64,000 nucleotides of DNA, taken from the IMG/VR virus record IMGVR_UViG_3300037067_004979, positions 10,733 to 74,732 of that record. One strand, written 5' to 3'. Shown here piece after piece: positions 1,716-46,640 of the stretch (position 1 is its first letter; every line of letters begins with the position of its first letter). The translations under genes and the position numbers were made by a program. Source of the stretch: a virus (lineage: Duplodnaviria > Heunggongvirae > Uroviricota > Caudoviricetes). The notes under the pieces are model-generated. The model saw nothing but the letters and a program-made list of their open reading frames with translations, was not told the DNA's origin and searched no databases.

Positions 1716-4343
1716 ATGGGTAGAAGAGGACCACAACCTGGTGATATTGCTGGTAAGGTAAGGGTTATGGTACCAGCAGAAAAGAATGGTAAGAGATACT
1801 ATATACCTAGATATGTAACACAGGAAGCTGCATCAAAATACCAGCAATACACACCTGGTATGGAGGAGCAGGAACAATCCACAGGTAAAAAGAGACCAGA
1901 AAACTGGAAGGATCCAAGATTAAACCAGGTATATAATCTTCCACCAAATGATGAATCTAGATACCATTCTCACCAGGGATCACTAAAGTATCATCCTGTT
2001 CATCTCCCACATGACGATGATAATGTAAGCATAGAGCATCGTAATGAGAAGGATGCCTATGAAAATAGGTATTATGGCTCAAAGATGCAGAAACCTCTCT
2101 ATGAACAACTTGGTTTTGATCTTAATCGTAGTGTGCCAATAAACATGAGGGGATTGAGGCTAAAGGCAGATAAGTATGTGCATCCCAAGATAGGAAACTT
2201 CTATCTGTTTGATCACAAGGGATGGAGTTATGTTGTATCACCAGCCAACAAGATCACAAAACACTTCTATAATAAGTTAGATGGTGAGGATTTCATATTT
2301 AACTTGATAAGAGGGCCAAAGAAGTCATTTGAATCTAAATCACTCATACTAGATAAGATACAAAAGATGATACAGGCTTTCTCAAGTTATACATCTGGTA
2401 ACAATTCAGTCAGGATAGAGTATAATGGTAATGAATACTCTGTTTTGGTAAACAGCAACCCAATTATGCAGAGTGGTGATTTTGGATCAGCAATGTCAGA
2501 GTATTACAGACAGATAGGAGAGATAGTTAGACTGCAGGAGAGTGATCCAGACATCTCACTTAATATATTTGGGGATCAGGTTGTTAGAACAAACAGAGAG
2601 GCCATTGACAAGCTATCAATGATGGGTAAATCCATGGAAGCTGGGATGCTTAAGAATTTTGATTACTCTAATGTCAAGCTACCATTTGAGGATATCATTT
2701 TTAAGTATGAATCCCCCAGTAATCAGATAGGACAGGTACCAATACAGGAAGATATGGGGCAGGCTGCTGCAGAGACTGGTAATAAGCCTCGTAGATTAGA
2801 TGAAAACAGGGAGAGAAAACAGATTGGTTCTAATACATTTGAACTAAAGTCTATAGATAAGGATAGAGCTCAACGTATAGGTAGGAGCATTGGGATTGAT
2901 TTTGATAAGTATAATCTAGATCAATTCACAAGGGGCATAAATGTAGAGAGAGAACACGGTTCTAGGGATCCAGAAACCGATGTTATTGGTGATGACCCAT
3001 TTGCTGCCGGCAAGATTGCATGGGCACACCTAAAGGAAGTGCCAGACTACTACACCAAGTTAGAGATGGTGGAAAAGGAATTAAGAGATCTAGGCATGAG
3101 ACCCGCTCCAGAGGAAGCTCTACAAGATAGACACAGAGATGTTGATAGGCCGCATAAGGTAAGTCGTACCTTTCAACAGAGAAACTCTCCAAGTGAAGAG
3201 GTACCAATGGAGTTCAAGGATTTTCCGATGATGGCAGAGGGTGTACAAGCACATGAGAGTGTTAAGTTAGAGGGAACAGCTGATAAGATCGGTGGTAAAC
3301 CAAAACCAATAATTGGGAAGTCCTTTGGACCCATGATGGCAGTGGATAGAATTGGTGATAATCCCAAGCCAATAGATGGTAGAGACAGTGTTGGTAGCTT
3401 TTCTACAGAGCGTGATACCACATCTGAGCTAGAGAATCAAACTCAGGAGCAGCATGAGGTTGAGGAAAATAAGGAGCCATTCTATCACAAGAGATTTAAT
3501 ACTGATATGATCTATGACCAGTTAGAGGATATCCTTAAATCCCGCGGATTAATAGAGGGATCACAACCAATGGGTGTAAAGAGCATTGGTAATCAGGTAG
3601 AGCATGCAGTTTATCATGGCCTAAGAGATACTGTTAATGATTGGTTTTCTAGGATTGAACCCACCACACAACTTGATAAGGCTGTGCTGGATCTAAAGGC
3701 TGATCTTCTTAAGTGGGAGATTGGGGTGAGTAGAGATGTTGTAACAGATGTTAATGATATCTTTAATAAGGGTATTCAAGCTGGGATGGGAAATACAGGT
3801 ATTGCTGTTCCTGACAGATTAACTGGAATGTTTAACTATCAGATGTATAAACCAACTGGTATATCACCAGCTCTTGAGAATTTTCAAAACAGTGTCTTTG
3901 ACTCACTGTCTGGTATACTGAGAAAGCACTACGATAATGGCTTCCCAATTTACAGCACTAAGAGAGACATTGACTCATATCTCAGGAAAGCTAGATATAA
4001 CACCAGATTAATGATAAAGTCCGAGGTAGCCCAGATGGCCAACCTAGGCCAGATCATAGCATGGGAGCAGGATCCTGATAGGTACATGTATGAGTATTTC
4101 TGGAATGCAATTGATGATGATAGGATTAAGGTTATATCTAAGTCCAGACTGGATGGTAACCCATATGCATATCCTGAGATTCGTTTCCTCTGGGAAAACC
4201 AGATACAGATCATAGATGGTGTTGAGTACAATGACGTATTTAATCAGAGGTGTAGTATTTCCAGGGGTGATCTCCTTAGTAAAAGCTGGGATACAAATAG
4301 ATTTTCCTCTAGTGTGAATCTATTTAAGTCTACAATGATATGA
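1716..4343 (+). CDS. large virion-associated protein with MuF-like C-terminal region and N-terminal copy of the shared RYY module
   Basis: 875-aa ORF, RBS GAGGTGA; C-terminal YEYFWNAIDDDRIKVISKSRLDGNPYAYPE resembles phage Mu F/SPP1 gp7 head-morphogenesis signature (Y.W...D.R......LdG); N-term VRVMVPAEKNGKRYYIP similar to module in downstream paralogs. Confidence 0.55.
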   Translation: MGRRGPQPGDIAGKVRVMVPAEKNGKRYYIPRYVTQEAASKYQQYTPGMEEQEQSTGKKRPENWKDPRLNQVYNLPPNDESRYHSHQGSLKYHPVHLPHDDDNVSIEHRNEKDAYENRYYGSKMQKPLYEQLGFDLNRSVPINMRGLRLKADKYVHPKIGNFYLFDHKGWSYVVSPANKITKHFYNKLDGEDFIFNLIRGPKKSFESKSLILDKIQKMIQAFSSYTSGNNSVRIEYNGNEYSVLVNSNPIMQSGDFGSAMSEYYRQIGEIVRLQESDPDISLNIFGDQVVRTNREAIDKLSMMGKSMEAGMLKNFDYSNVKLPFEDIIFKYESPSNQIGQVPIQEDMGQAAAETGNKPRRLDENRERKQIGSNTFELKSIDKDRAQRIGRSIGIDFDKYNLDQFTRGINVEREHGSRDPETDVIGDDPFAAGKIAWAHLKEVPDYYTKLEMVEKELRDLGMRPAPEEALQDRHRDVDRPHKVSRTFQQRNSPSEEVPMEFKDFPMMAEGVQAHESVKLEGTADKIGGKPKPIIGKSFGPMMAVDRIGDNPKPIDGRDSVGSFSTERDTTSELENQTQEQHEVEENKEPFYHKRFNTDMIYDQLEDILKSRGLIEGSQPMGVKSIGNQVEHAVYHGLRDTVNDWFSRIEPTTQLDKAVLDLKADLLKWEIGVSRDVVTDVNDIFNKGIQAGMGNTGIAVPDRLTGMFNYQMYKPTGISPALENFQNSVFDSLSGILRKHYDNGFPIYSTKRDIDSYLRKARYNTRLMIKSEVAQMANLGQIIAWEQDPDRYMYEYFWNAIDDDRIKVISKSRLDGNPYAYPEIRFLWENQIQIIDGVEYNDVFNQRCSISRGDLLSKSWDTNRFSSSVNLFKSTMI

Positions 4344-7300
4344 ATGATATACTGTCTAGAATAGATGGTTTTCTTGTGAAGGCAAAGAAACATGGTGTAT
4401 CATATGCTGAGTATGTTAATAATACATCAATCAAGAGTGGGCATGATAAATTTAATGAGTATACCCCAAGTACACAGAGTAAAATCATTAAAAATCCTGC
4501 TGAGATATTAGATTATGATCTTGAGATTGGGGTAATTGATCAGGATGATTATGATAATATCATGGCATATCTTAAATCAATAAATAGTGAGCAGGCACCC
4601 CAACCACAGGGCCAAAAGGTATATCTCAAGCCTGGTGAGCACTCTCCTGAGGGTACCAGAGAGTATCAGGGCAAGCGTGGTGGGAGATACTACCTTGCTA
4701 CAGGCAAAACTGGATCAACTGGGGCAGAACAATATGACATTGATGCAGATTTAGATAGACAGATTAGGGAAGATCCTGTATTCTCTGATATGGTTAAGAC
4801 AGGTGGTGTGGGGGAATCAATCTATAGGGATATAGTTGGGTATCTTAAACTTGATAATAACCAACTGTTAGAGACATATCATCTTCGTGGTGATTCTGAT
4901 ATAAGTAATAAGATATTAAATGAGATAATAACTAGAAGAATTGCTAATGGTGATTTGAGTCTCAAGATTGATAAGACATATCTAATAGATTCTAGGCATG
5001 GCCTCATTGGGTATATATGGAGTGCCCCAAAAAACATAAAGATAGACTTTATCAAGAGTAACATAGATACTGATAATGTTAATATAGGTAGAGTTATACT
5101 GGATATTCTTGAAGATAACATAAATCTACCAGGTAGAGATAATCTATATCTTGATCTAGCACATGGATTGGGCTCTAAAAATTTAACTATAATGGAAAAC
5201 ATATTACATCATATCTCTAGTGACCATATCTCTGATAAGATCTTTATAAGAAGTAAATACCCAGAGGTGAGGAGTTTGGCCATGTCTAGAATATCAGATC
5301 CAGATTTAATCAGAAGAATGTTGAACAATGAGTTAGGTATGAGCCTTAAGAGTCCCTATATACTTGAACGAGGGTTATCTAGGGGTGATAAGGATCTGGT
5401 TACCAGCCCAAGATATCTTGAAGCCTGCGCTGCTGATGATAGGGTTAGTTTAGGACGTCTTCTTAATAGGAGTGGTGATCCTCTAACTATACCAGATATC
5501 TATGGTGTATATAAATCAGTACCAAGTGGTACGTTTATATCAATCATCTGGGGTTTAAATAGTGAAGAGGGCATACTTGATTTAATGAGATATAATGATC
5601 CTGTACTAAATAATTTGATTTTTAATAACAGAAATTTTGATAATCAATTCATATCCCAAATTATTGATAGTGATGATATAGATAAAACCAGTGACATGTG
5701 GCGTAACATACTATACGATACAGATAGTGAGGATATCATCAGTGGTAAGCTAGATGATCCTGACATTCAGACATCTCGTATAGCTCTATCTAGATTGATA
5801 GATCTTGGGGGTGTAAATCGTTTTGGTAATGATAACTGGGTGTTAACAGCATATAATCACACAAATGAGGATAATCTAGATTATGTTATATCTAAGAAAA
5901 GCCCAAAGTTAAGTAATCTCCTCTTTGATGAGATATTCATCAGTGATAAATTTAGTGTGGTTGATAAGGATGATGTGTTGGATTACTTTTCTAGATACAT
6001 ACCAGACGATGCCTTTGCAGAAAAGATAGTTGGGTACATGGATATCAATTCTGCTAAGGTAGAATCCATATTTTATGATTTTCCAGGACCAGACCTAGCT
6101 CTAAGGTTAAGAGATACAGAGAATGATGAATTGAGAAGAAAGATAGCTCTGTATCTAAGAGAAGAGGATATCAATGAATCTTATATGTTTGATAGCAATC
6201 TATATGTTAGAAGAGTAATTGCTGATAGATTAATGGATAAGGATAAGATACATCAGATGATAATTAATACTCCCTATGATTCATCTAATAATGAGGGTTC
6301 TCTCTATAATCGCATGATGGATAAATTACTGTGGAAAGCCTCCAGTGAGGATAAGATACATAAGTTTGATGAGTTATTGTCTAACTTTGCTAGGGATGAA
6401 CGTACATATATCTTAACATCAATACTAGCAGATGCTGAATATGATGTACTGTCACATGTTATAAATAACATTAATAACATACCAGATACACATCTTAGGG
6501 ATATCATGACAAACTGCTCTGCTGATGATATCATTAGACTATCTAAAATGGAGAGAATTCCTAAAGATAAAATTCTTACTACCAGATTAAAAAACATAGA
6601 GAATCTCGGTGGTGTTACTGCCATCAATAAATTTAGGGAAACTGGAGAGATTGATACCAATGCTATGAGGAAGGATTTTCTGGATAAGATAAGGAGAGTT
6701 GATGGGATTAATATTCAGGCTGAGGAAATTCATGATGATGATGAACCAGTTGGTCTAGATGAGTTTCTCCATCATCATAGAATTCATGCTGGGTTAAGAC
6801 AGGGATGGCTGTCTAGCTCAAATAGTAGTAAGTCTGCTCTGCTTAAGGAAGCTGCAAGAAGACTGTTTGGTGGGCACGTCTTTTATCATGATAATGCTAT
6901 TGCCAGTGATAAGAAGTGGGATGATGAGGTTACTCAATATAGTAAGGATAATAATATAGATATTGGAGAGGTTGAGAGTTATGTTAGAGATCTATATCAG
7001 ATGACCCAGCAATTACTATCTATTAGATTTCCTGGTAAGGAGGAGTTTACTCTCTGGAGGGGTTCATCTGAGGATGAGATTGCTGAGAAAACTGGAGAGC
7101 AAGATGAGTTTTACTTAACTCCTATTAAGATAAGGCAAAACTCTATCTCATCATGGACACTCAAGAAGAATGTTGCTGCATCATTTGGTAACACAATATT
7201 TGAGATCAAGGTACCCAAGAATGAGATCATAGCCAGCTATCTAATGTACTCATATTCTGGGTTTGAGGCCGAGATTCTTCTACATGGATCTGAGAATAGG

Positions 7301-7360
7301 GATGGATATATAGTACCAGCAAAGGGTATCTGGGAAGATATAACGATAAAGCATGGTTAA
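4340..7360 (+). CDS. polyvalent virion protein with C-terminal ADP-ribosyltransferase domain
   Basis: 1006 aa; KVYLKPGEHSPEGTREYQGKRGGRYYL module (nt 4616-4696); HEAT-like repeats (EVRSLAMSRISDPDLI, YVRRVIADRLMDKD); C-terminal LWRGSS ... SISSWT ... FEAEILL = R / S-x-S / E-x-E ART triad. Confidence 0.65.
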   Translation: MNDILSRIDGFLVKAKKHGVSYAEYVNNTSIKSGHDKFNEYTPSTQSKIIKNPAEILDYDLEIGVIDQDDYDNIMAYLKSINSEQAPQPQGQKVYLKPGEHSPEGTREYQGKRGGRYYLATGKTGSTGAEQYDIDADLDRQIREDPVFSDMVKTGGVGESIYRDIVGYLKLDNNQLLETYHLRGDSDISNKILNEIITRRIANGDLSLKIDKTYLIDSRHGLIGYIWSAPKNIKIDFIKSNIDTDNVNIGRVILDILEDNINLPGRDNLYLDLAHGLGSKNLTIMENILHHISSDHISDKIFIRSKYPEVRSLAMSRISDPDLIRRMLNNELGMSLKSPYILERGLSRGDKDLVTSPRYLEACAADDRVSLGRLLNRSGDPLTIPDIYGVYKSVPSGTFISIIWGLNSEEGILDLMRYNDPVLNNLIFNNRNFDNQFISQIIDSDDIDKTSDMWRNILYDTDSEDIISGKLDDPDIQTSRIALSRLIDLGGVNRFGNDNWVLTAYNHTNEDNLDYVISKKSPKLSNLLFDEIFISDKFSVVDKDDVLDYFSRYIPDDAFAEKIVGYMDINSAKVESIFYDFPGPDLALRLRDTENDELRRKIALYLREEDINESYMFDSNLYVRRVIADRLMDKDKIHQMIINTPYDSSNNEGSLYNRMMDKLLWKASSEDKIHKFDELLSNFARDERTYILTSILADAEYDVLSHVINNINNIPDTHLRDIMTNCSADDIIRLSKMERIPKDKILTTRLKNIENLGGVTAINKFRETGEIDTNAMRKDFLDKIRRVDGINIQAEEIHDDDEPVGLDEFLHHHRIHAGLRQGWLSSSNSSKSALLKEAARRLFGGHVFYHDNAIASDKKWDDEVTQYSKDNNIDIGEVESYVRDLYQMTQQLLSIRFPGKEEFTLWRGSSEDEIAEKTGEQDEFYLTPIKIRQNSISSWTLKKNVAASFGNTIFEIKVPKNEIIASYLMYSYSGFEAEILLHGSENRDGYIVPAKGIWEDITIKHG

Positions 7361-8549
7361 TACATATAACATAGATAACAACACAGATAACTCTGATTGG
7401 ATCCAGACAGTCAGGAGGTTAAATGAATTCAGTGATTTCAGAAAAACCTATCTGAGAACTGGCCAGAAACCTCCTAAGGGAAAGGAACTATATCAGGGGC
7501 CAAGAGGTGGGCACTTCTACCTTGCTAATGAGGATGATAAGTCTGAGGTTGAGTTCATGATTGATAATAATCTTATCTCTGAGTTAAGAGATAGTGTATT
7601 ATCCAACTGGTATCCAGTTATAAATAGGGTAGCATCATCTATACCAGATTGGATTACAAGAGATCTGAGAATACACATCAGTACCAATCTATATCTTGAA
7701 TCCAGGAAGATGTCAGAGGCAACAATTACTGGTAGGTATCTAGGGAAGGATGATATAATTATGATCAATCCACTCCTGCTTGTTATTAGTGATGAGGATG
7801 AATTGAGAATAAAGAGTGTTGATTATAATAATGAGATAAGATCCAGTGCATTTATATGTGTGTTAACTCATGAGCTTGGACACAGGGTAGAGAGAATACT
7901 ATACGATCACAGACCAAGATTGGTGTCTGATCTATTTGTTGAATATGAAAATACACCTGGTGCTGTTACTAGATATGGGAAAACCAATAAGAATGAGAGA
8001 TTTGCTGAGGCCTTCCTCTACTACAATCAGAATCCCAGAATTCTAGCAGGGAGAGACCCAACATCATATAAATTTATGAGGATGCACGTGTTTGATAACA
8101 GAGATATTGATAATCCAGTCTTAAAATCTGCTGATACTGGTGATATACCACTAGGGTCTGCCTGGATTGAGGATAGGGGGGCCTCCCTAAAATTCTTTGA
8201 GAAAGTCATTCGTGGAAAGAAGATTAGTGAATCTAAGAGAGATAAATCAAAGGATAATAAATCAGCTAATCCACCATTCATAACAATAGAGCCAGATCAG
8301 GGATTAATGCAGAAGTCTAAGATCTACTCTGAGATGGGTGAGGATAGCACAAAGACCACTGATGGCCCTAGAGGCCAACCACAGGAAGATCCACTTGAAA
8401 ATCCTGAGTATGGTTATGGTAATGCTGTTGGTAGCATGTCTATTGATAAGAGTGAGGGACTAGATTCTGTGAAGAAAAAAATAAGAGGGATAACACACGG
8501 TGATGCGGATGTTAAGAGTAAGCAAGACTATCCTTCAAGAGGAGAATAA
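7353..8549 (+). CDS. polyvalent protein with HExxH zinc-metallopeptidase motif
   Basis: KGKELYQGPRGGHFYLAN module near N-terminus; ICVLTHELGHRVE HExxH motif (nt ~7856-7894); start overlaps upstream stop. Confidence 0.6.
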   Translation: MVNTYNIDNNTDNSDWIQTVRRLNEFSDFRKTYLRTGQKPPKGKELYQGPRGGHFYLANEDDKSEVEFMIDNNLISELRDSVLSNWYPVINRVASSIPDWITRDLRIHISTNLYLESRKMSEATITGRYLGKDDIIMINPLLLVISDEDELRIKSVDYNNEIRSSAFICVLTHELGHRVERILYDHRPRLVSDLFVEYENTPGAVTRYGKTNKNERFAEAFLYYNQNPRILAGRDPTSYKFMRMHVFDNRDIDNPVLKSADTGDIPLGSAWIEDRGASLKFFEKVIRGKKISESKRDKSKDNKSANPPFITIEPDQGLMQKSKIYSEMGEDSTKTTDGPRGQPQEDPLENPEYGYGNAVGSMSIDKSEGLDSVKKKIRGITHGDADVKSKQDYPSRGE

Positions 8550-8970
8550 GAGGTGGGAATCCTATCAGATTGGTTCAAGAGTAAGCAAGAGAACCAAGTT
8601 ATTGATTGGTAACTCCCTCAGTATCATGGGATCCATCATAGGTAATGCAGATGATAATGTCAGAGCTGTTTATCATGGTGGTGAGTTACAGGGTGCTGTT
8701 GTCTATGGTGTTAGTAATGATGAGATGAGAGTTGCATTTATTGCTGTTGCCCCTTGGAATGTCTATGGTATGCCAGATAGACTGAGTGGGTGTGGGGCAT
8801 ACATGATGAGACATATTTTCAAAATAGTCAGCAGAGATGTTAAAATTAAGGGTGTATCACTGGTTGCCTTTGATGAGGCAGTCAATTTTTATAGGAAACT
8901 TGGATTTACTGAGAGAGGTGCATCAATGTTTATATCAAGAAGGAAGATCAATGGGAAACTGGGAAAATAG
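8500..8970 (+). CDS. GNAT family N-acetyltransferase
   Basis: VAFIAVAPW...RLSGCGAYMMRHI...FYRKLGF matches GNAT motifs A/B; overlaps both neighbours by short stretches (translational coupling). Confidence 0.55.
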   Translation: MMRMLRVSKTILQEENKRWESYQIGSRVSKRTKLLIGNSLSIMGSIIGNADDNVRAVYHGGELQGAVVYGVSNDEMRVAFIAVAPWNVYGMPDRLSGCGAYMMRHIFKIVSRDVKIKGVSLVAFDEAVNFYRKLGFTERGASMFISRRKINGKLGK

Positions 8971-10060
8971 AGCCAGAAAACTAGATTCTAGAAAGAAGCA
9001 GAGGGGATTTAAGACACACAATAAGGGTATGGCTAATCTACATGCTAATATTGCTAGTAAGAGATCCGCTGAGGCTGATGTGGTTCTTGATAAGATAAAT
9101 AGATTAACCAAGGGTAAGGTATACCTCTATGGTGATGAACACTCCCCTGAGAATACCCAGGAATTTAGAGGTCCTAAGGGTGCTAGATTCTACTACAGTG
9201 ATCAGTCAGGTGGTGGAGAAGTCCAACAATCACCAGACATATCCAGTTTAAATAGCAGAGAGATTGATGATAACACACTCCAAATTCTACAGAAGCAATC
9301 TGCTGTATGGAAGCAGTATGCAGAGAAATTTGGAGATGAGAACTCAGTTAATGCTGCATGGTTATTTGATGAGTTGGTTGGTGATATACAGGATTCTCAC
9401 ATACCACGTAGACTTAAATTTATATCATCTGACAGGGGCATTGAGAATGTTGCTGAGTTTAGGGATGTTAAGAAGAACAATGCCTACTACATTGATGTTC
9501 TAGCGTCTTCCCCACTAAATCAGGTTGGTTCAAGAGATAGAAGACCTGGTGGTGGTAATAAGCTACTCTATGATATATGCAGGGAAGCTGTTGATAATAA
9601 CAAGGATTACATCAAGTTAACCACTCTGGATGCTGCAAAACCATATTATCTCCAGAATGGATTTAGGGAATCCCAGACAGAGGGAGACATGATCTTATCA
9701 AGAGATGGTATTATGAGTTTTGTTAAGCAATATGAATCTAAACTTGGTAAGGCCATAGATATTGAGCCTGTCGCAATACCAGAGGGATCTAATATTAGAA
9801 AGGAGTTTGGTATGGCAGCTGATGTTAATACTCCCACATTTGGTGGTGGTTCAAGAAAAATCAGGGATAGAATCAAGATGATACTTGGGAAATCCCAAAA
9901 TCAAATAGATGACATACATGGGGAAGCTAAGCAGGTGGTACCTAAAACCCACATACAGAGAAGGGTTTTACATGAAGTAGAATATTTTGATGATGATAAT
10001 TTAAAAAAGAGTTTAATATTATATGAAGAAGGAGACAAATATTTTGTTGAAGTTATCTAA
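8951..10060 (+). CDS. polyvalent protein with RYY module and GNAT-like C-terminal domain
   Basis: Start placed at ATG 8951 (MGNWENRARK); track start 8837 would overlap the GNAT gene by 130 nt in another frame. KVYLYGDEHSPENTQEFRGPKGARFYY module (nt 9113-9196); YYIDVLAS...RDRRPGGGNKLLYDI...YYLQNGF GNAT-like. Confidence 0.5.
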   Translation: MGNWENRARKLDSRKKQRGFKTHNKGMANLHANIASKRSAEADVVLDKINRLTKGKVYLYGDEHSPENTQEFRGPKGARFYYSDQSGGGEVQQSPDISSLNSREIDDNTLQILQKQSAVWKQYAEKFGDENSVNAAWLFDELVGDIQDSHIPRRLKFISSDRGIENVAEFRDVKKNNAYYIDVLASSPLNQVGSRDRRPGGGNKLLYDICREAVDNNKDYIKLTTLDAAKPYYLQNGFRESQTEGDMILSRDGIMSFVKQYESKLGKAIDIEPVAIPEGSNIRKEFGMAADVNTPTFGGGSRKIRDRIKMILGKSQNQIDDIHGEAKQVVPKTHIQRRVLHEVEYFDDDNLKKSLILYEEGDKYFVEVI

Positions 10061-10796
10061 GAATTGTTTGAAATGTGGGAAAGAAATATTTGTAAAGCCT
10101 TCTATCTATAATAGAAAAAAATACTGTTCTAGAGAATGTAGAAAAACAGTAAAAATAGAACATGAATGTATAGGATGTCATGAGAAGTTTTATGTTTTTC
10201 CTAGTAGTAAAAAAATATATTGTTCACGTAAATGTCTAGATAAATATAGACCTAATGTTTGGCAGAAAAAATGGCCAAAAATATATGAATATGCTAATGT
10301 TAAATGTAATATGTGTGGGTCTCTAATGTATAGATCTTTAAAAAATAAAAATAATTATTATTGTTCTCAAAAGTGTTATCAAGAATATATAAAAAATAAT
10401 CCACATACTATCAGAATTGATCAAATTAACAACCAAGAGGTATTTTTACAAATTCTTTTAGAAATTATTTTGCCTACAGAATGGATATACGTTGGGAATA
10501 ACCAATTAAATATTTCTGGTAAAAATCCTGATTATGTACATAAAAGTGGTAATAAGTTAATAGAATATTATGGAAGATATTGGCATAGGAATGATAATCC
10601 AAATGAAAGAATTAAATTTTTTAGGGAAAGAGGCTATGAGTGTTTAGTAATATGGGAAGATGAATTATTTAAACAAGGCAAGACAAAATTATGCCCTAAG
10701 TGGTTAGAAACATTAGAAAAAATAGTGATATTTTCTGGTTATACAGGAGATAACTATGTAGGAGCTAGTAATGAGAAAAGAATTTGGGAATATTGA
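10023..10796 (+). CDS. free-standing homing-endonuclease-like protein (three zinc ribbons + Vsr/DUF559-like PD-(D/E)xK nuclease)
   Basis: Three C-x2-C...YCS(R/Q)xC(R/L/Y) zinc-ribbon repeats; C-terminal ISGKNPDYVHKSGNKLIEYYGRYWH...RERGYECLVIWEDE resembles Vsr/DUF559 fold and the intein endonuclease at 13563-14579; very AT-rich. Confidence 0.5.
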   Translation: MKKETNILLKLSKNCLKCGKEIFVKPSIYNRKKYCSRECRKTVKIEHECIGCHEKFYVFPSSKKIYCSRKCLDKYRPNVWQKKWPKIYEYANVKCNMCGSLMYRSLKNKNNYYCSQKCYQEYIKNNPHTIRIDQINNQEVFLQILLEIILPTEWIYVGNNQLNISGKNPDYVHKSGNKLIEYYGRYWHRNDNPNERIKFFRERGYECLVIWEDELFKQGKTKLCPKWLETLEKIVIFSGYTGDNYVGASNEKRIWEY

Positions 10797-11361
10797 TGAA
10801 GCCTCTAAATTTTTTAATAAAATGAAAATTAAATCTAAAATAAATTATATTTCTAAAGAATTGGATAGCTGTATTAATGAAGAGGGGATGATTCAAAAGT
10901 TCCTTAATGGTTATAAAAAGCTGGCTTTATTAAGTAAATCTTTTAACGGCCAAGAACTTAAAGATCTAGTAGATTTAGCTAAGTATGTTAATTCCATCAA
11001 GGGATTTAATCTATCTATGTCTGATAATCCAGATAGAATAGATAGGGTGTGTTACATAGATGCTGTTGCTCATAACCTGCACAAGCAGAAGCTGGTTGAT
11101 GGATCCTCAATATATAAGCAATTGGATGAGTTAGCATCAATCTCAAAATCAATTGGTGAGAGTAATAGGGAAGATAGGTTATTATTGTTGCAATCTCCAG
11201 TATATAATATTAATAAGATAAATAGTCTGGGAATAAGCATCCTCCAAAAATCATCTCTATCTCTTTGGGGGTTATATGAAAAAGCTATTAAGATTGGGGT
11301 GGAGAGATTATCAAATAGAGAACTGGTCTTACTCAGGGAATTCCTATGGAGTAAGATCTAG
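10771..11361 (+). CDS. hypothetical protein
   Basis: 196-aa ORF, no recognisable motif. Confidence 0.45.
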   Translation: MRKEFGNIDEASKFFNKMKIKSKINYISKELDSCINEEGMIQKFLNGYKKLALLSKSFNGQELKDLVDLAKYVNSIKGFNLSMSDNPDRIDRVCYIDAVAHNLHKQKLVDGSSIYKQLDELASISKSIGESNREDRLLLLQSPVYNINKINSLGISILQKSSLSLWGLYEKAIKIGVERLSNRELVLLREFLWSKI

Positions 11362-11372
11362 AGGAGGTAACT

Positions 11373-12557
11373 ATGGAAGACAAGAATCTATATAAGTCTA
11401 GGGATTATGATAAGGCTAATCAATTTGACAGGGTATTTCATAAGAGATATGAGTCTGGTTCATCCAAGATTGAGATTGGCCAGAGACCTGATAACATGGG
11501 TGTTGGTGGAAGAGCAATAGACATACTTCTTAATACCCCAATTTCTAAACTAGAATCAGTACTAAAGGCAGTTGGTGGTGTACCTGGTCAAAAGGCTGGT
11601 AGAAGAGTATATGTGGCACCAGGTGAAGCCCCACCCAAGGGTATTACTCTCTATAGAGGAAAGGAGGGTGGAAGATTCTATCTTGAAAACGAGTTTGAAC
11701 AGATGAAGGGATCACCATCTACCAGAGAAAACAAGCCTGATTATAAAAAAGAGCACTCATCTTTGTCTGATAGGGTCAAGTCTATTACTGAGAAGATGGA
11801 GAAGGAATACAACAATCTTGGTAATACTAAACCCAGAAATCCAGTAAATAGGTTTCAACCTGATCTACCACAAAATCAGGGTGTATTTAAGGGTAAGAAT
11901 CTAGCTACTGAGTATACACAAAAACCTGCTTCTCCAAAGTTTGAAGCTCCACAGGGTACTGTAAAGAACATCAAGCCCCCAAAGATTGAGAAGGAAGCTG
12001 GTCTTGGTGATGTTGGGTATAAGTCACCTGAGGTTGTATCTAAATCAATTAGTAGATTTCTGGCTAAACAGAATAATCCCTTTGCAATTGCTACTGCACA
12101 AGCTAAGAAGATGGGCTATCATAATTTTAAGGAGGGTACTCCTGGTGAGAAAAAGGTAGATGATATCTCTGAGGCTATCAAGGGCACAAAGAAGGTAGAG
12201 AAACAGAATCTTCCTAGCTTCAATCCAACTGGTAATCCAATGACTGGTATGGGTAACAAAGTAAAAGCTCAGGGCATAAAGAATAAACTTCTTGCTGGTC
12301 AAGGACAAGCTAAACTTGGTGCGGGTGGCAATATGCCGTCTAGTGCACAGAATGATATAGTAACTACAAATCAGCCACAAATACCTAAGACTATTGATCA
12401 AAGAAATCAAACCTTGTCAAGTAGGTCTGCTGGAATGTCTTCTCCAAAGATACAAGCTCCTGCAATGAGAAGTAGGGGTCCAAGAAATATACCATTTGCC
12501 CAATTTTCTTTGGCTGATAGAATAAATAAGTATATCCAGAAGAATGAAAAGAAATAG
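11373..12557 (+). CDS. Lys/Pro/Gly-rich protein carrying the RYY module (putative internal/ejection protein)
   Basis: RBS AGGAGGTAAC; RRVYVAPGEAPPKGITLYRGKEGGRFYLENE (nt 11601-11681); basic low-complexity C-terminal half. Confidence 0.5.
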   Translation: MEDKNLYKSRDYDKANQFDRVFHKRYESGSSKIEIGQRPDNMGVGGRAIDILLNTPISKLESVLKAVGGVPGQKAGRRVYVAPGEAPPKGITLYRGKEGGRFYLENEFEQMKGSPSTRENKPDYKKEHSSLSDRVKSITEKMEKEYNNLGNTKPRNPVNRFQPDLPQNQGVFKGKNLATEYTQKPASPKFEAPQGTVKNIKPPKIEKEAGLGDVGYKSPEVVSKSISRFLAKQNNPFAIATAQAKKMGYHNFKEGTPGEKKVDDISEAIKGTKKVEKQNLPSFNPTGNPMTGMGNKVKAQGIKNKLLAGQGQAKLGAGGNMPSSAQNDIVTTNQPQIPKTIDQRNQTLSSRSAGMSSPKIQAPAMRSRGPRNIPFAQFSLADRINKYIQKNEKK

Positions 12558-13058: not shown

Positions 13059-14651
13059 GTGAAAAAGATTCTAAATAGAGTAGAGCAAGAGATTGAGAAC
13101 AGAAATATAGGAGAGGATGAGTTATCTGATATACTATCCTCATTTGAGCCAGCAAAAAATAGACGAATAATTGCAGGGTATGCCTCAGTATCAATTGTTG
13201 ATAGAGAGGGGCATCGAATAAGTATTGCTGCTCTTAAGGATGCTGCCTCAAGATTTATGAAGAGTGGTTATCCCCTTCTAAATGTTTTTCACAGTGATAT
13301 ATCAGTTGGTAAGGTCTTGCCAAGATGGACTGATCCTGAAACAGGTAAGATCTGGGAATCAAGAGTTGATGATAAGGGTTGGTTTGTTGTCTGTGAACTA
13401 AGATCTGACATAGAGATAGCTGATAAGGTTTGGGAAGAGGTTGTTAAGGGTAATCTTAGATCATTCTCCATAGCTGGTTCATCTAAGGCTAAGCATCAGG
13501 CCTATGAGGGTGGCCAACAGTTTACATCAATTGATGAGCTGGATTTGGCAGAAATTACAATTTGTTTACCTGGTGATCAAAAAGTATGGACTAAGTCAGG
13601 TCTTAAAGATATTAAAGACATACAAATTGGTGAGGAAGTTATATCTCATAAAGCTAAATGGAGAAAAGTTACCAAAAAATTTGAAAGGCTAATATCTGAG
13701 AAAATAATTAAGATAACTACTTCAAAGGGATCAGTTATTATAACAAAGAATCATCCTGTCAGAACTTTAATTTATGGTGGACAAAATATTGGAACACATT
13801 ATGAATGGAAAGAAGCTGGTTTTCTTAATGAGGGAGATCTAATATCTTTATTATCATTTAGAGGTGTATGCCCAAGATGTGGTTCTCCGATTTTTATGAC
13901 TAAAGGAAATAGAAATAGAGATTATTGTTCTCTAAAATGTAGATATACTATTGGCAATAGAAGAGGCAAAACATATGCTTCTGGTGATAAAGGAGCTTTG
14001 AAACGTAAAAAGAAAATGGAAGAATTCTATTCTTTTGAAGAAAACAGAAAAAAGATGGGTGCTGGTGGTAGATCAACATGGAATATACGAAAAAATAACC
14101 CAGAAAAATTAAAAGAATGGTTTATGAGATTTAGATCTAAAGATAACTCTAATCATTTTGTGTCTGGAGAAAATCATAAAAAAACTAAACCAGAAAGAGA
14201 GCTAGAGATCATTCTTAAAGAGCTTGGCCTCAGTGAATGGAAGTTTACTGGTGATGGTTCTTATCCTATAGCAGGCAAGTTTCCTGATTTTTATGATGGT
14301 GATAAAAAGATAATCGAGGTATTTGGTGGATATTGGCATAAAAAGGAAGAAGAACAAGAAAGAATAGAACATTTCAGGAAACATGGTTATGATTGTATCA
14401 TTTTATGGGATCATCAATTTGGTGATAAGGCTAGCATTAGAGATACAGTTAGTCAATTTAGCAGAAATAAATTATATAAGATATTAAAGATAGAAGAAAT
14501 GGAATATTCTGGTCTTGTATATAATTTAGAGGTAGAAGAGGATAATTCATTCTGCACAAATATCTGTTTGGTACATAATTGTGAAACTCCAGTCAATCAG
14601 ATGAGTAAGTTTGACATACTATGGAATCCTGGAAGGGTGGATGTTTTTTGA
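13059..14651 (+). CDS. HK97-family prohead protease (S78/U35) interrupted by an intein
   Basis: GTG start behind AGAGGAG RBS; N-extein IIAGYASVSIVDREGHRI...PLLNVFHSD...RSFSIAGSS matches HK97 gp4-type protease (His, Ser); intein begins CLPGDQKVWT and ends LVHN|CETPV. Confidence 0.8.
   Translation: MKKILNRVEQEIENRNIGEDELSDILSSFEPAKNRRIIAGYASVSIVDREGHRISIAALKDAASRFMKSGYPLLNVFHSDISVGKVLPRWTDPETGKIWESRVDDKGWFVVCELRSDIEIADKVWEEVVKGNLRSFSIAGSSKAKHQAYEGGQQFTSIDELDLAEITICLPGDQKVWTKSGLKDIKDIQIGEEVISHKAKWRKVTKKFERLISEKIIKITTSKGSVIITKNHPVRTLIYGGQNIGTHYEWKEAGFLNEGDLISLLSFRGVCPRCGSPIFMTKGNRNRDYCSLKCRYTIGNRRGKTYASGDKGALKRKKKMEEFYSFEENRKKMGAGGRSTWNIRKNNPEKLKEWFMRFRSKDNSNHFVSGENHKKTKPERELEIILKELGLSEWKFTGDGSYPIAGKFPDFYDGDKKIIEVFGGYWHKKEEEQERIEHFRKHGYDCIILWDHQFGDKASIRDTVSQFSRNKLYKILKIEEMEYSGLVYNLEVEEDNSFCTNICLVHNCETPVNQMSKFDILWNPGRVDVF
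13563..14579 (+). mobile_element. intein (339 aa) with zinc ribbon and Vsr/DUF559-like homing endonuclease domain
   Basis: Block A CLPGDQKVW after extein AEITI; block G VHN followed by Cys; internal CPRCGSPIF...YCSLKCR zinc ribbon and GDGSYPIAGKFPDFYDGDKKIIEVFGGYWH...HGYDCIILWDHQF nuclease paralogous to ORF 10023. Confidence 0.65.
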
Positions 14652-14720: not shown

Positions 14721-14730
14721 ATTTTTATTG

Positions 14731-14748
14731 ATGTTTTTTGGTATAATG
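14731..14748 (+). promoter_or_regulatory. conserved promoter motif GATGTTTTTTGGTATAAT
   Basis: Immediately after terminator; drives small-protein cluster. Confidence 0.55.
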
Positions 14749-14844
14749 TGTATATGCCAACTATTGAAATTGAGTTTAATGTTGTGGTGGGGGGTAATAA
14801 GATATAACCTTAACCATAACACTGTTGAGGATAGGGGAAAGTGT

Positions 14845-15027
14845 ATGGCTTGTGGGTATATTTTCCCTAATTACAAGCACTATATGGTAATATGTGATAA
14901 CTGTTTTGATGTGTGGAGTAATAATAGGTTATCCAAGGGGAGAGATCACTTCTTTAGAAATTTTAGGAGAATACCAACCATTGAGGAATACAAGAGATAC
15001 CGATTGCTTGATAGTTTAAGAGGATGA
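14845..15027 (+). CDS. small zinc-ribbon protein (MML-tail family)
   Basis: Start moved to ATG 14845 after AGGGGAAAG; CxxC...CDNCF; C-term EEYKRYRLLDSLRG. Confidence 0.45.
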   Translation: MACGYIFPNYKHYMVICDNCFDVWSNNRLSKGRDHFFRNFRRIPTIEEYKRYRLLDSLRG

Positions 15028-15275
15028 CTAAATTAGATAGAGTGTTATTTGCCTACTACAGGTATCACACAAACAGTCACAGAGAAACTGGTATGTGTAT
15101 ATGCTGTGATGCAAGGTGTAAGAATAACAACATCATGTTTTGTGAGAGTTGTCTCAATATCTATCTAACATTCAGGCAATCACTCAAAAAAAGTGAGCTA
15201 TATACCTTAGCTAAAGCCAGCAGTGATTTTGCTGACTTCAAGTATAAGCTAATGATGCTGAGGTTAAAAGCATAA
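15024..15275 (+). CDS. small zinc-ribbon protein (MML-tail family)
   Basis: CICCDARC...MFCESCL; C-term KLMMLRLKA. Confidence 0.5.
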   Translation: MTKLDRVLFAYYRYHTNSHRETGMCICCDARCKNNNIMFCESCLNIYLTFRQSLKKSELYTLAKASSDFADFKYKLMMLRLKA

Positions 15276-15529
15276 TGGATATTGATATTGCTAGATTAGC
15301 TAGAGCTGTATATTATCATTATAATCAAACATCATATGAAAAGATCAAAGAGTGCGTTGTTTGTGGTAAGGATGTAGCTTCTAATATGATCTTTTGTTCA
15401 GAACATGATAAACAGTGGGAGGATTTTAAGCATTATTCTCTTGGTTTGGAAGATACCTATGCTATGTTAGCTTCATCAGAATCTGAGGATGAGTATATTA
15501 GAAACCTAATGATGAGGGTAATGAGATGA
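15275..15529 (+). CDS. small zinc-ribbon protein (MML-tail family)
   Basis: CVVCGKDV...FCSEHD; C-term IRNLMMRVMR. Confidence 0.5.
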   Translation: MDIDIARLARAVYYHYNQTSYEKIKECVVCGKDVASNMIFCSEHDKQWEDFKHYSLGLEDTYAMLASSESEDEYIRNLMMRVMR

Positions 15530-15601
15530 TAGAGGATTTATGTATCTGTATATTTTTGTTAGTGCCTTGTTTTATCATAGCATTTATATTTTTTTGGCAG
15601 G

Positions 15602-15796
15602 ATGATATATAGATCAATCCTGAGAATCAAGAGAATTCATGAGGTATATCTATTCAGTAGTAAGATACTAGAAGAGGATATTAATGAATATTGTCTCTTG
15701 CCACCATTTAGATATATGGTAGATAGACATGATATACCATTAGAGGATTTTGCTAAGACTGAGAGAATATTATACAGGATGAGAAATAGCATATGA
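15602..15796 (+). CDS. small hypothetical protein, paralog of 15812
   Basis: Shares LLPPFRYMVDRHDIPLEDFAKTERILYRMRNSI-type C-terminus with next ORF. Confidence 0.4.
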   Translation: MIYRSILRIKRIHEVYLFSSKILEEDINEYCLLPPFRYMVDRHDIPLEDFAKTERILYRMRNSI

Positions 15797-15811
15797 GGAT
15801 CTACTAATAAG

Positions 15812-16084
15812 ATGTTTAGTATATTTATTATGATTATTTTTTCTATCATGGTAATTTGTTCAATTCCTTTTATAGTGACTGGTTTTATCAAAATTCATGA
15901 GTGTAATAAGGACTTAAAGAGAAATGAAGAGGTATATGATTACAGAGTAAGGATGATAAAAAAAGATTATGAGGAGTTTCTTCTTCTGCCAAGTTATGAT
16001 AAGATGTTGGAGGATAGAGACACACCCGTAGATGGTTTTGCCATAAGGGAAAGAATGCTGCATAGGATGAGAAAGAGTGTATGA
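15812..16084 (+). CDS. small protein with N-terminal TM helix, paralog of 15602
   Basis: LLLPSYDKMLEDRDTPVDGFAIRERMLHRMRKSV parallels previous ORF. Confidence 0.4.
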   Translation: MFSIFIMIIFSIMVICSIPFIVTGFIKIHECNKDLKRNEEVYDYRVRMIKKDYEEFLLLPSYDKMLEDRDTPVDGFAIRERMLHRMRKSV

Positions 16085-21120: not shown

Positions 21121-22152
21121 ATGAAACCATCACAAGTACTGGAGGCAATGGCTGTCTCCTACAAGAACAACGGACCACGTATCATTCTCATTGGTAGCCC
21201 CGGCACTGCAAAGACAAGTCTGGTAAATCAGCTGCCAGCATACATGAAGAAACCCAATCTTCCTGTATACACATTCCAGGCAACACTCTATGCACCTGAT
21301 GAGGTAAAAGGTTTACCCACTCTTGTTACCAAGTCTGATGGTAGGCAAGAGGCTGTATTCCTTCCGTTTCAGGATATGCCATCTGCACCGGAGGGTATAC
21401 TCAACATTGATGACCTGCCACATGCACCGACAGCTACACAGAATGCCTTTATGAGACTGATTCTTGAAAACATCTGTGGGGCATGGAATCTGGGTGGTAT
21501 CAGACCATTTGCCACAGGAAACCGGTCAAGTGATCGAGCTGGTGCAAAGGATCTGCAATCTGCAATGGCCAACAGGTTTACCAGAATAGAGGTAGACATC
21601 AACTATGAGGATTGGAGATCCTGGGCAATAGGACAGAACATACGACCAGAGATCATATCATTTCTTGGTGCTCCCTATGGAGCAGAGTGGCTCAACAATG
21701 ACAAGTTTGATCCTGGTAGGCAGGTCAATCCCACCCCAAGGTCATGGGAGTTTGCCTCAAGGTGGTTTGAGGCCTTCAAGGGACAGGGTGAGGTGCTTCA
21801 TGAGTGTCTGAATGGATGCATTGGTGGAGCGGCTACATCAAAGTTCATGGGCTGGTTGAAGGTCTACTCTGAGTTGCCAGATCTTAATCTGATCATGCAG
21901 GGTGCTAAGACATACCCTGAAAAACTTGACATCTTCTATGCCTGCATATCTGGTCTGGTACAACTAGCCAGAAACTCAACAAAGAGAGCACAGGCTTTCC
22001 AGACTCTGGTTGATTATGCCACCACCATACCTGATAAGTATATTGAGATGGGTGCCATGCTCAGTAAAGACCTATTTCTTTTGGATGAGAAGGTCTTTAC
22101 CAAGTGCAACATCAGCAAGTGGCAAAACAGATATGAGGATGTAATTCTCTAA
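21121..22152 (+). CDS. MoxR-like AAA+ ATPase
   Basis: Walker A LIGSPGTAKTS, Walker B LNIDDL, sensor/arginine finger region; size 343 aa typical of MoxR/CbbQ family; GC-richer than flanks. Confidence 0.7.
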   Translation: MKPSQVLEAMAVSYKNNGPRIILIGSPGTAKTSLVNQLPAYMKKPNLPVYTFQATLYAPDEVKGLPTLVTKSDGRQEAVFLPFQDMPSAPEGILNIDDLPHAPTATQNAFMRLILENICGAWNLGGIRPFATGNRSSDRAGAKDLQSAMANRFTRIEVDINYEDWRSWAIGQNIRPEIISFLGAPYGAEWLNNDKFDPGRQVNPTPRSWEFASRWFEAFKGQGEVLHECLNGCIGGAATSKFMGWLKVYSELPDLNLIMQGAKTYPEKLDIFYACISGLVQLARNSTKRAQAFQTLVDYATTIPDKYIEMGAMLSKDLFLLDEKVFTKCNISKWQNRYEDVIL

Positions 22153-22206
22153 TATTCCAACGCAGTCCATCATTCACATGGTGGACTGAATGGAGGATTA
22201 AAGAAA

Positions 22207-34473: not shown

Positions 34474-35847
34474 GTGGCAGATATTTCATTAGGTGAATAT
34501 TTAGCGCAAGCACAGAGATCCATGGGTGGAGGCCAATTCGGAAGAGTTAGTGGTCCTCTTAGTGGATATCTCTTTGGTCCGGATTTTTTTAGGAAACAGA
34601 CCTATCTTCAGGTAGCGGATACATTTACTGCTACATATGGTAAAAAGGTTTGGGATGCCCTAAATAACAAAACTGTAACATTCAATGCAATTAAAAAAGT
34701 TGATTGGGGTCCTACGGTTGGTTGGCGTCTTAGGACAGATCGTGGTAAGACTGGTGCTTCTTCTGAAACCATAACAAAGCGTTCTCGTCCTGTTACAGAG
34801 ACAGGGTCTCTTCCAACTATAGATGTATCAAATTATGTTGGTGTCTATAGCTATCCAAAGAACATAGTGTCTACCTTTGGTGTGAGCTTGAAATCTCAGG
34901 CTGTGTCAGCACTTGAAGGCGGCATTGGGAACCAATTTGCTGTGGAGCAGGAGGGTGCATCTCGTGACCACATCAAAGAAATAAACCAGGAAATAATGGC
35001 TTCTGGTGGATATCTGATGTCTGGTGGAAGTTCTGATTATGGTATAGTTGGTACTGCTACTGCTACCTTTGCTCTGGCTGATCACTTTAAGATCGGTGAT
35101 GGAGTGGCAAAATCTGGTACTGATACATCCAGGACAGTTACATATGTTACCACAGCTGATGGACATGTAAATGCAACATCTCTCAGTGGTGCAGATGGTT
35201 ATACTGTTTATGTAAAATCAAGGGCTGGTCTTACTAGCATTGATGATATCGTAGCAGATGATTCTCAGAAGATTGGCAATGTAACAACCCCCATAGATGT
35301 ATATAATCTTACCACAAGAACAGCTGGTGGGTATGCTGCTGCAGCCTACTGCAGTGATAATGCAGGTTCTGGCAGAGATCTTACTCTAAAGTTAGTTGAT
35401 CAGTGCTTTGAGAATATACGTCAGAATGGTGGTGAACCAAAACTTATCATAACTGGTCTTGATCAGTATGATAACTTTAACCAGCTTTTACAGGCTCAAC
35501 AGAGATTTGTAGATGTGACTGATTACATTGTTGGTGCTGGGGATGAGAGGACCTACCCTGGAACAAGAGCAGGCTTCCAGCTTGCTACCTACAGGGGTGT
35601 TCCCATTCTTCCTGATCCTGATACTCCAAAATCAATGAGTTCAGCAGATGCCTTACTTGGTAGTAATTTATATGTACTGGATACTGATTATCTGGAAACT
35701 GCTGTCATGTATCCTACTCAGTACATTGAAAATAGAGACTACTTTGCGGCAAATGCTCTTGTGATAAGAGGCATGTTTATCACAATGGCAGAAACCAGGG
35801 CTCTTAGGTTTGATGTACATGCAAAGCTGTCTGACTTAAATACATAA
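34474..35847 (+). CDS. putative major capsid protein
   Basis: 457 aa after scaffold-like gene, RBS AGGAGGTGAG, followed by strong terminator; family not provable by eye. Confidence 0.5.
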   Translation: MADISLGEYLAQAQRSMGGGQFGRVSGPLSGYLFGPDFFRKQTYLQVADTFTATYGKKVWDALNNKTVTFNAIKKVDWGPTVGWRLRTDRGKTGASSETITKRSRPVTETGSLPTIDVSNYVGVYSYPKNIVSTFGVSLKSQAVSALEGGIGNQFAVEQEGASRDHIKEINQEIMASGGYLMSGGSSDYGIVGTATATFALADHFKIGDGVAKSGTDTSRTVTYVTTADGHVNATSLSGADGYTVYVKSRAGLTSIDDIVADDSQKIGNVTTPIDVYNLTTRTAGGYAAAAYCSDNAGSGRDLTLKLVDQCFENIRQNGGEPKLIITGLDQYDNFNQLLQAQQRFVDVTDYIVGAGDERTYPGTRAGFQLATYRGVPILPDPDTPKSMSSADALLGSNLYVLDTDYLETAVMYPTQYIENRDYFAANALVIRGMFITMAETRALRFDVHAKLSDLNT

Positions 35848-45910: not shown

Positions 45911-45911
45911 T

Positions 45912-46631: not shown

Positions 46632-46640
46632 GGAGGAAAA

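Follow-up and report, generated by a model that had tools for sequence, protein, structure and literature searches.

We analysed a 64,000-nucleotide stretch of a Caudoviricetes virus (IMG/VR record IMGVR_UViG_3300037067_004979, positions 10,733 to 74,732; hereafter, the window), in which four proteins carry a shared module of about 30 residues with the pattern [KR][VI]YLxPGExPPxGxxVxxGx[RK]GGx[YF]Y. This module is real and conserved, it occurs in head-gene neighbourhoods and at the boundaries of effector cassettes, and it is found fused to portal and protease domains. On balance, it probably acts as a portable encapsidation adaptor that would load effectors into the heads of archaeal tailed viruses.

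The window was scanned in six frames with the strict pattern [YF].G.[KRE]G[GA][RH][YF][YF], and exactly four occurrences were found, all on the plus strand and confined to four open reading frames (ORFs), one in each. Copy 1 (PQGQKVYLKPGEHSPEGTREYQGKRGGRYYLATGKT; 4604..4711) covers residues 89-124 of ORF 4340 (4340-7360), copy 2 (SDFRKTYLRTGQKPPKGKELYQGPRGGHFYLANEDD; 7431..7538) residues 27-62 of ORF 7353 (7353-8549), copy 3 (LTKGKVYLYGDEHSPENTQEFRGPKGARFYYSDQSG; 9104..9211) residues 52-87 of ORF 8951 (8951-10060), and copy 4 (KAGRRVYVAPGEAPPKGITLYRGKEGGRFYLENEFE; 11592..11699) residues 74-109 of ORF 11373 (11373-12557); the leaders ahead of the module are 26-88 residues long. When a 36-column hidden Markov model (HMM) was rebuilt with one copy left out and scored against the window ORFs, the omitted copies 1 to 4 gave 48.2, 37.1, 24.2 and 40.0 bits, respectively (E 1e-6 to 3e-14), and the top unrelated ORF reached no more than 7.8 bits. 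The copy in ORF 8951 was the most divergent of the four. The first-pass annotation had counted five ORFs with the module, the fifth copy being a weaker one in ORF 1716. This held for four of them, but the motif in ORF 1716 failed the module HMM (-0.4 to 4.7 bits), and the number of copies is therefore four, not five. The N-terminal motif of ORF 1716 is a separate conserved element, common to its orthologue P0034, where the RYY is not retained. The AlphaFold2 model of copy 1 showed three strands, with a core predicted local distance difference test score of 88, and the module is thus predicted to be a small, independently folding, three-stranded beta-sheet of about 30 residues.

Searches of Pfam, PHROG and NCBIfam with the module gave no match even at E<=10, and the statement made at first reading that it could not be assigned to a named family was upheld, with the kinship to PF08789 described below having been missed. 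An exhaustive HMMER search with a four-copy profile against 1.84 billion representative proteins yielded 223 representatives at E<=1e-3, 24 of them at E<=1e-10. Among the best 150 of the 223, one copy was found in 92 proteins, two in 52 and three in 4, and the first copy started at residue 59 (median). The family consensus is (D.FI.)K.[KR][VI]YLKPGEkPPeGvqVxrGp[RK]GGr[YF]YE, where Y7, P15 and G23 are invariant and conservation is 90% or higher at G17, G26, G27 and Y30. All ten module proteins whose names were looked up were either called "hypothetical" or had no name, and no paper on the motif was found in a literature search. Other searches gave little: a word-indexed homology search returned no match with the module alignment A1, since the index cannot seed on a query of 36-44 residues, only two short proteins with the 115-sequence alignment A5, and only itself with full-length ORF 4340. 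The ORF 7353 protein had no relative in an IMG/VR scan and no exact match on record.

The module is strongly enriched in viruses. Pattern scans of IMG/VR gave 18 and 31 confirmed loci, on about 40 distinct contigs. Prokaryotic genomes representing 185,579 species contained only four module loci, every one on contigs of metagenome-assembled genomes (MAGs) binned as Woesearchaeota, Pacearchaeota, Daviesbacteria and Patescibacteria, and a housekeeping or cellular domain identity was rejected. Among 50,697 GenBank phage records, which formed our comparison set, tblastn with a canonical copy detected HVTV-1, HVTV-2 and HCTV-5 only (Druskaviridae). Foldseek against BFVD matched only module copies in archaeal virus proteins, all with E above 0.07; these were proteins of "uncultured archaeal virus", including an XkdF-like protease, and gp116 of HVTV-1. 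An identical 727-residue protein (P0039, L050/L051 5974-8154), in which MuF and a eukaryote-type topoisomerase IB (2e-31) share one polypeptide with the module, was present on contigs of about 110 kb binned to Daviesbacteria and to Woesearchaeota. The host labels of the MAG contigs are unreliable, because the same protein was binned to different phyla; an IMG/VR viral contig has a like size (109,910 bp), and together these data suggest that the two contigs are a mis-binned virus.

The domains joined to the module were surveyed with Pfam in 70 module-bearing representatives. Topoisom_I was the commonest (11 of 70), followed by DUF5661 and prohead protease S78 (5 each), ADPrib_exo_Tox and DRAT (4 each, possibly the same proteins), DUF192, GNAT and DUF3293 (3 each), RelA_SpoT, ATLF, Phage_portal, SAM lyase, PI3/PI4 kinase and ParB_N (2 each), and PolyA_pol and NUDIX (1 each). 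Fusions to portal were counted only from Pfam Phage_portal matches, as a portal label assigned by transitivity was contaminated by module-to-module matches. Individual Pfam scans of large IMG/VR module proteins revealed a Phage_portal match followed by the module in seven out of ten, with the Phage_portal cutoff exceeded in two of these seven (L021 and L036). Two of the seven contain a further recognisable domain: the protein of L015 has the portal at residues 236-392, the module at 506-538 and Peptidase_Mx at 831-926, and that of L036 has the portal, two modules and DUF3293. Those without a portal match included a NUDIX-PAP2-module protein, whose tail is ADP-ribosyltransferase (ART)-like by homology to ORF 4340, and a DNA ligase-module protein. 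Moreover, a prohead-protease domain and the module were found within one ORF in nine cases, seven of them distinct, and in five of the seven the module lay downstream of the protease domain (in L027, the protease spans residues 17-165 and the module 183-215).

The layouts of related proteins differ around the module. One representative, P0004, reads module-HEAT-GNAT-module-module-HEAT-ART and is a fused counterpart of the separate genes in the window. A contig from a Pacearchaeota MAG (L052) showed the layout of the window: a row of five ORFs, all of which begin with a module, encodes ART, ART, an unknown protein, zeta toxin plus glutaredoxin, and an unknown protein, in this order. A close relative of the window (L057; 65-75% nucleotide identity in shared segments) encodes an orthologue of ORF 1716 (P0034, 6334-10119) with an insertion of about 390 residues at residue 329, headed by a module; the inserted domain had no family match. 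In this relative, the zincin gene has three modules, and no ART gene lies between it and the ORF 1716 orthologue. As the differences among P0004, L052 and L057 show, modules are the points at which cassettes are fused, split, gained and lost. Full-size proteins that end with the module were also found (P0022, P0051 and P0102).

At least one head gene was recognisable within the examined stretch at 33 of 46 distinct loci, and the usual order was terL-portal-[module ORFs]-protease-[module ORF]-MCP, MCP being the major capsid protein. The cargo genes of the window lie in this portal-to-capsid interval, with the prohead protease marking the downstream edge of the cluster. In the cultured haloarchaeal viruses HVTV-1, HCTV-1 and HCTV-5, the module genes occupy the same position in the head region; in all three, the genes for portal and MuF precede that for a module-zeta toxin polyprotein, after which come protease and MCP. 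The order in HVTV-1 is portal, gp113, the MuF protein gp114, gp115, gp116, protease and MCP, where gp115 contains a module (residues 18-50), a zeta toxin and an ART, and gp116 has two modules, ending at the C-terminus. In HCTV-5 gp114, one copy is N-terminal and two lie at the extreme C-terminus, and HCTV-1 gp109 has a single N-terminal copy; the tandem copies of HVTV-1 gp116 and HCTV-5 gp114 stop about five residues or fewer from the C-terminus. In a group of marine contigs, the module stands at the start of a long acidic ORF, rich in Ala, Glu and Gln, that lies between the genes for protease and capsid. These ORFs (L017 2345-3796, L009 16038-16766 and L028 1414-3267) share a conserved basic tail, KMMQKxNxDNKRRDPIVLSNKGG, and had no family match; by position and composition only, they may encode a scaffold.

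The four window copies and a canonical copy did not match the HMM of PF08789, the chlorovirus "basic adaptor", at E<=10, and one intermediate module copy stayed below the gathering score (12.7 against 20.4 bits). However, the module profile retrieved proteins over the PF08789 threshold, such as P0046 at 77 bits. When the module alignment A4 was compared by hhalign with alignment A8 of PF08789-type units, the probability was 97.1% (E 7.5e-11, 23 columns), a comparison with some circularity: the A8 members pass PF08789 in Pfam, but it was the module profile that had first picked them out. The overlap paired module columns 13-35, the C-terminal two-thirds of the module, with columns 2-24 of the PF08789-type unit. 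Judged from these profiles, the module is a putative divergent, N-terminally extended relative of PF08789. Both share a Y-x-G-x-[RK]-G-G-x-Y-Y beta-hairpin core, and both are small, repeated, non-catalytic and joined to diverse enzymes of large dsDNA viruses. The module differs in having an additional N-terminal strand and loop ([KR][VI]YLxPGExPPxG) and in lacking the C-terminal GxKxY strand of the PBCV domain, and it is thus shifted or permuted; moreover, it belongs to HK97-type tailed archaeal viruses, beside portal and protease genes, whereas PF08789 is found in Varidnaviria. PF08789 is carried in PBCV-1 by the kinases A278L and A282L, of which each virion contains about 400-530 copies and which are purified together with the viral DNA (PMC3281028).

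We favour an encapsidation adaptor because portal, protease, scaffold-position proteins and effector cassettes meet in the procapsid interior before DNA entry. Every enzyme cassette would bear its own module as a tag, here the ART, the zincin and the GNAT, and elsewhere zeta toxin, topoisomerase IB, NUDIX, SAM lyase and ParB; the fusion partners would then represent the repertoire of packaged effectors. During procapsid assembly, the module would dock the cassette onto an internal head component, the candidate sites being the core of portal, protease and scaffold, or the inner capsid surface. Docking may proceed via module-module pairing, which is possible because core proteins of related viruses carry the module. 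The docked enzymes would be trapped in the head, ejected with the DNA, and act early in the host.

Several points weigh against the adaptor. The packaging of the module proteins, the binding target of the module and the ejection of cargo are all deduced from sequence. The protease of the window and the portal just upstream (L001) are both without the module, and therefore the anchor, if one is needed, would be the ORF 11373 protein or a non-module surface. L050 and P0039 join the module and MuF in one protein, so that the module is not simply a substitute for MuF. Any function in assembly or early injection could account for the proximity to head genes and, since many of the representatives are fragments from metagenomes, the module positions given for them are approximate. 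A broader version of the adaptor, which we regard as tentative and rather doubtful, is a universal portable cargo-loading domain of archaeal tailed viruses in which some 30 residues suffice to bring any protein into the head, perhaps through pairing with module copies on the portal, protease or scaffold, and which is homologous to the chlorovirus adaptor across two realms.

An encapsidation adaptor has precedents in short targeting signals. The capsid-targeting sequence of T4 internal proteins, the tail of the HK97 protease and the cargo-loading peptides of encapsulins are short linear terminal peptides of about 10-20 residues, some of them cleaved. Like these, the module is a portable element on unrelated cargo of an HK97-fold shell. 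The capsid-targeting tail of HK97-type proteases sits directly after the catalytic domain, and the module occupies the analogous position in the protease fusions. In contrast to these peptides, the module is a predicted folded domain of about 30 residues that may be N-terminal, internal, C-terminal or repeated.

The module could instead be a nucleic-acid-binding "basic adaptor" that tethers enzymes to the viral genome in the head or in the host, with the cargo packaged and ejected by riding the DNA, an explanation that we consider unlikely but worth weighing. The mean net charge was +2.6 over 36 residues, and K or R was found at position 5 in 115 of 118 copies and at position 25 in 102 of 118, beside conserved tyrosines. 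Charge is not constant in the family, however: it spans -6 to +10, the haloarchaeal copies are net acidic by hand residue count and often replace the conserved Arg (GPSGA, GEQGG, GDQGG), and the invariant positions are all structural (Y, P and G). The profile similarity to PF08789, whose PBCV-1 carriers co-purify with virion DNA, would agree with a tether, but the DNA association of A278L and A282L may come from their overall isoelectric point of 10.8 and not from the PF08789 domain. Some common partners do act on DNA (topoisomerase IB, ParB_N and DNA ligase), and a protein with several copies would gain avidity for a polymer; nevertheless, the protease and the scaffold-position proteins work before DNA enters the head.

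Cleavage was also considered. In this scheme, the prohead protease or the co-encoded zincin would recognise or cut the module as a processing junction, freeing effectors or removing leaders as in T4 internal proteins, and processing of polyvalent proteins by zincins has indeed been proposed (Iyer et al. 2017, PMC5512222). The modules at cassette boundaries of the polyproteins P0004, L018 and L023, those directly after protease and portal domains, and the leaders preceding the module in the window would all be consistent with it. Nonetheless, stand-alone genes with a single cassette retain the module, both in the window and in L052, and cleavage would free almost nothing in P0022, P0051, P0102, HVTV-1 gp116 and HCTV-5 gp114, which end with it. 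Known prohead-protease sites need far fewer than about 30 residues, so that a conserved element of this length, predicted to fold, far exceeds the requirement. Chloroviruses, where the PF08789 relatives occur, are not known to have HK97-type proteases. Altogether, we regard a processing junction as improbable. Least credible to us is a role after delivery, as a targeting or oligomerisation domain for one host structure or as a mere inter-domain spacer. In its favour, a common tag could just as well direct the many enzymes to one shared target in the host, packaging itself is argued from sequence, and the module occurs in viruses whose archaeal hosts differ widely (haloarchaea, marine groups, DPANN-associated contigs). 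Yet hosts so divergent are unlikely to have one conserved target in common, the carriers among portal, prohead protease and scaffold-position proteins work inside the procapsid, and the strict head-module location would be left unexplained.

The first-pass annotation had likened the module proteins to packaged polyvalent effectors of phages, and the comparison holds, for in relatives the module separates effector cassettes (P0004 and HVTV-1 gp115). As in polyvalent systems, the head genes around portal and terminase include those for disparate effectors (ART, zincin, GNAT, nucleotidyltransferase, ParB and others), portal and MuF fusions occur, and packaging in the head with injection alongside the DNA is the presumed route. 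The portal gene lies 4.3 kb upstream of ORF 1716, ahead of the window (on a Logan contig, L001), and the protease at 13059-14651. The definition fits the relatives P0004 (GNAT and ART) and HVTV-1 gp115 (zeta toxin and ART) and the polyproteins L018 and L023. The window proteins, in contrast, have one recognisable effector each rather than at least two activities, and their cassettes are separate genes, each keeping its own tag; also, the module effectors include eukaryote-type topoisomerase IB and zeta toxin. The LPD families, which we take to be included among the Pfam models, did not match the module. Polyvalent proteins have been described as scarce in archaea, in a survey that mentions neither the module nor PBCV (0 occurrences; Iyer et al. 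2017, PMC5512222). On the best reading, the module proteins belong functionally to the theme of polyvalent or MuF-linked packaged effectors, as its archaeal-virus version.

Regarding the individual proteins of the region, five C-terminal parts had been proposed at first reading: the ART, the HExxH peptidase and the basic tail were borne out, and the GNAT and the MuF-like region were so only in part. The product of ORF 4340 (4340..7360, plus strand; 1006 residues) is a putative cargo protein with a leader, the module, a long helical (HEAT-like) region and a C-terminal ART, the latter matching DRAT PF07357 at residues 820-971 (59.5 bits, cutoff 25; E 3.8e-16). This ART domain was found again in the module proteins P0052, P0004 and P0133. 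ORF 7353 (7353..8549, plus strand) encodes a candidate cargo protein of 398 residues, in which the module is followed by an ATLF-like HExxH zincin (PF07737, residues 168-243; 28.9 bits, barely over the cutoff of 27.4); the motif HELGH is present in the translation, and P0063 is a full-length orthologue (9e-91).

A clear GNAT acetyltransferase is encoded between the cargo genes by a stand-alone ORF without the module (8500..8970, plus strand; Acetyltransf_7 2.2e-4, phrog_1758), which has an orthologue in the relative L057. ORF 8951 (8951..10060, plus strand; 369 residues, gene call P0012) carries the module and a probable GNAT-like region, and its assignment is sub-threshold and transitive: searches of Pfam, NCBIfam and PDB sequences gave no match, but its orthologue P0035 showed a sub-threshold GNAT match (E 0.006), and its residues 134-263 aligned with the GNAT region of P0043. 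Its residues 282-348 were 57% identical to residues 610-675 of P0002, and residues 24-196 of the product of ORF 10771 (10771..11361, plus strand; 196 residues) were 56% identical to residues 670-843 of the same protein. By these alignments, ORF 8951 and ORF 10771 are the N- and C-terminal halves of one cargo gene, intact in P0002 and split by the free-standing ORF 10023 (10023..10796, plus strand), which encodes a Zn-ribbon endonuclease (phrog_1271 HNH endonuclease, 8.6e-13) with a C-terminus that looked Vsr-like by eye. The domain of ORF 10771 is also C-terminal in P0043, P0032 and an L032 module protein. A group I intron near the endonuclease was sought with Rfam over the whole window, and only tRNAs were detected. 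The prohead (head maturation) protease gene (13059..14651, plus strand; head maturation protease PHROGs, Peptidase_S78_2) contains an intein with an endonuclease, spanning residues 196-507 (Intein_splicing PF14890). The intein endonuclease is a paralogue of that of ORF 10023 (BLASTP 2e-19), and one homing-endonuclease family has thus invaded two genes of the head region.

The 394-residue protein of ORF 11373 (11373..12557, plus strand), encoded immediately upstream of the protease, has a leader, the module, a long basic stretch of low complexity and a conserved C-terminus. With its full-length homologues P0006, P0018, P0049, P0014 and P0091 it forms a conserved family (E 1e-47 to 1e-72), in which P0006, P0018 and P0014 have two modules each. 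No match was obtained in Pfam, PHROG or NCBIfam, nor by tblastn against the GenBank phages, and this protein is possibly a core or anchor protein. At the other end of the region, ORF 1716 (1716..4343, plus strand) encodes a head-region protein of 875 residues without the module, with DUF5661 at residues 385-454 (1.3e-15) and a C-terminus, about residues 586-870, that can be called MuF-like only by transitivity. Residues 586-875 gave no match to Phage_Mu_F PF04233 (cutoff 29.6 bits) at E<=0.05, but L004, L050, L003 and L032 contain homologous domains (E 1e-26 to 1e-68) that do match Phage_Mu_F; the scores were 32.4 bits for L004, above the cutoff, and 24.2 bits for L050, and these two align with ORF 1716 at E 1e-26 to 1e-36. 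Upstream of it, a gene at 147-1376 encodes a protein of 409 residues with a glycine-zipper stretch at residues 291-330 or thereabouts (sub-threshold Pfam), and it is kept in the relative L057 (65% nucleotide identity).

The portal of the window virus matched only those of HCTV-5, HVTV-1 and HCTV-1 (E 5e-25, 24-25% identity), and tblastn with the capsid protein (34474..35847, plus strand; HK97 fold, SU10-like, SU10_MCP 4.1e-9) found only Methanofastidiosa virus vir519 and Druskaviridae. As portal and capsid match only archaeal viruses, kinship to archaeal tailed viruses is indicated, which the first-pass annotation had missed, and a bacterial phage origin was rejected. The head hallmark proteins are nearest to archaeal tailed viruses akin to Druskaviridae (Thumleimavirales), with identities too low for family membership. 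The GC content is 32-42% in 2-kb windows, megablast of the region against the GenBank phages gave no match, and the ORF 4340 protein sequence occurs on a 106-kb JGI contig and a 28-kb Logan contig. By these comparisons, the window derives from a virus of low GC content, distantly related to the archaeal tailed viruses whose genomes measure about 100 kb, and not from a bacteriophage.

The rest of the window gave further observations. About 20 kb separate the protease from the capsid gene further downstream, and the head module is thus split; the interval 12600-34400 contains small ORFs, a tRNA-Pro and a reversal of GC skew, and a minus-strand block at 28-33 kb carries three tRNAs (Arg, Ser and Ile). 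Right after the protease, at 14728-16084, small paralogous ORFs (64-99 residues) showed, by eye, zinc-finger-like CxxC...CxxC motifs and similar C-terminal ends. At 21121-23373, a DUF2201 metallopeptidase and VWA-like gene (5.5e-34 and 3.7e-21) comes after the gene for an AAA_5 (MoxR-like) ATPase. Nine consecutive plus-strand ORFs occupy 39634-47414; the first two, the only ones scanned, are glycosyltransferases, the first being a glycosyltransferase-methyltransferase fusion of 681 residues, and they may modify the virion or host surface. Finally, the 1009-residue ORF at 52580-55609 has a NARROW LEAF 1 N-terminal domain (2.6e-9) and a weak trypsin-like peptidase match below the cutoff (E 0.0023).

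Next to nothing is known of what else archaeal tailed viruses inject along with their DNA. For the genome of any archaeal caudovirus, the module offers a sequence handle by which the likely injected arsenal (ARTs, zeta toxins, zincins, GNATs, topoisomerase IB and SAM lyase) could be flagged, and the three cultured haloviruses HVTV-1, HCTV-1 and HCTV-5 make it testable now. If its role in encapsidation is borne out, the module would serve as a compact means of loading foreign proteins into HK97-type capsids, and a function would be assigned to the uncharacterised chlorovirus domain PF08789. Should the broader version also be true, a single system for tagging virion cargo would be common to Duplodnaviria and Varidnaviria.

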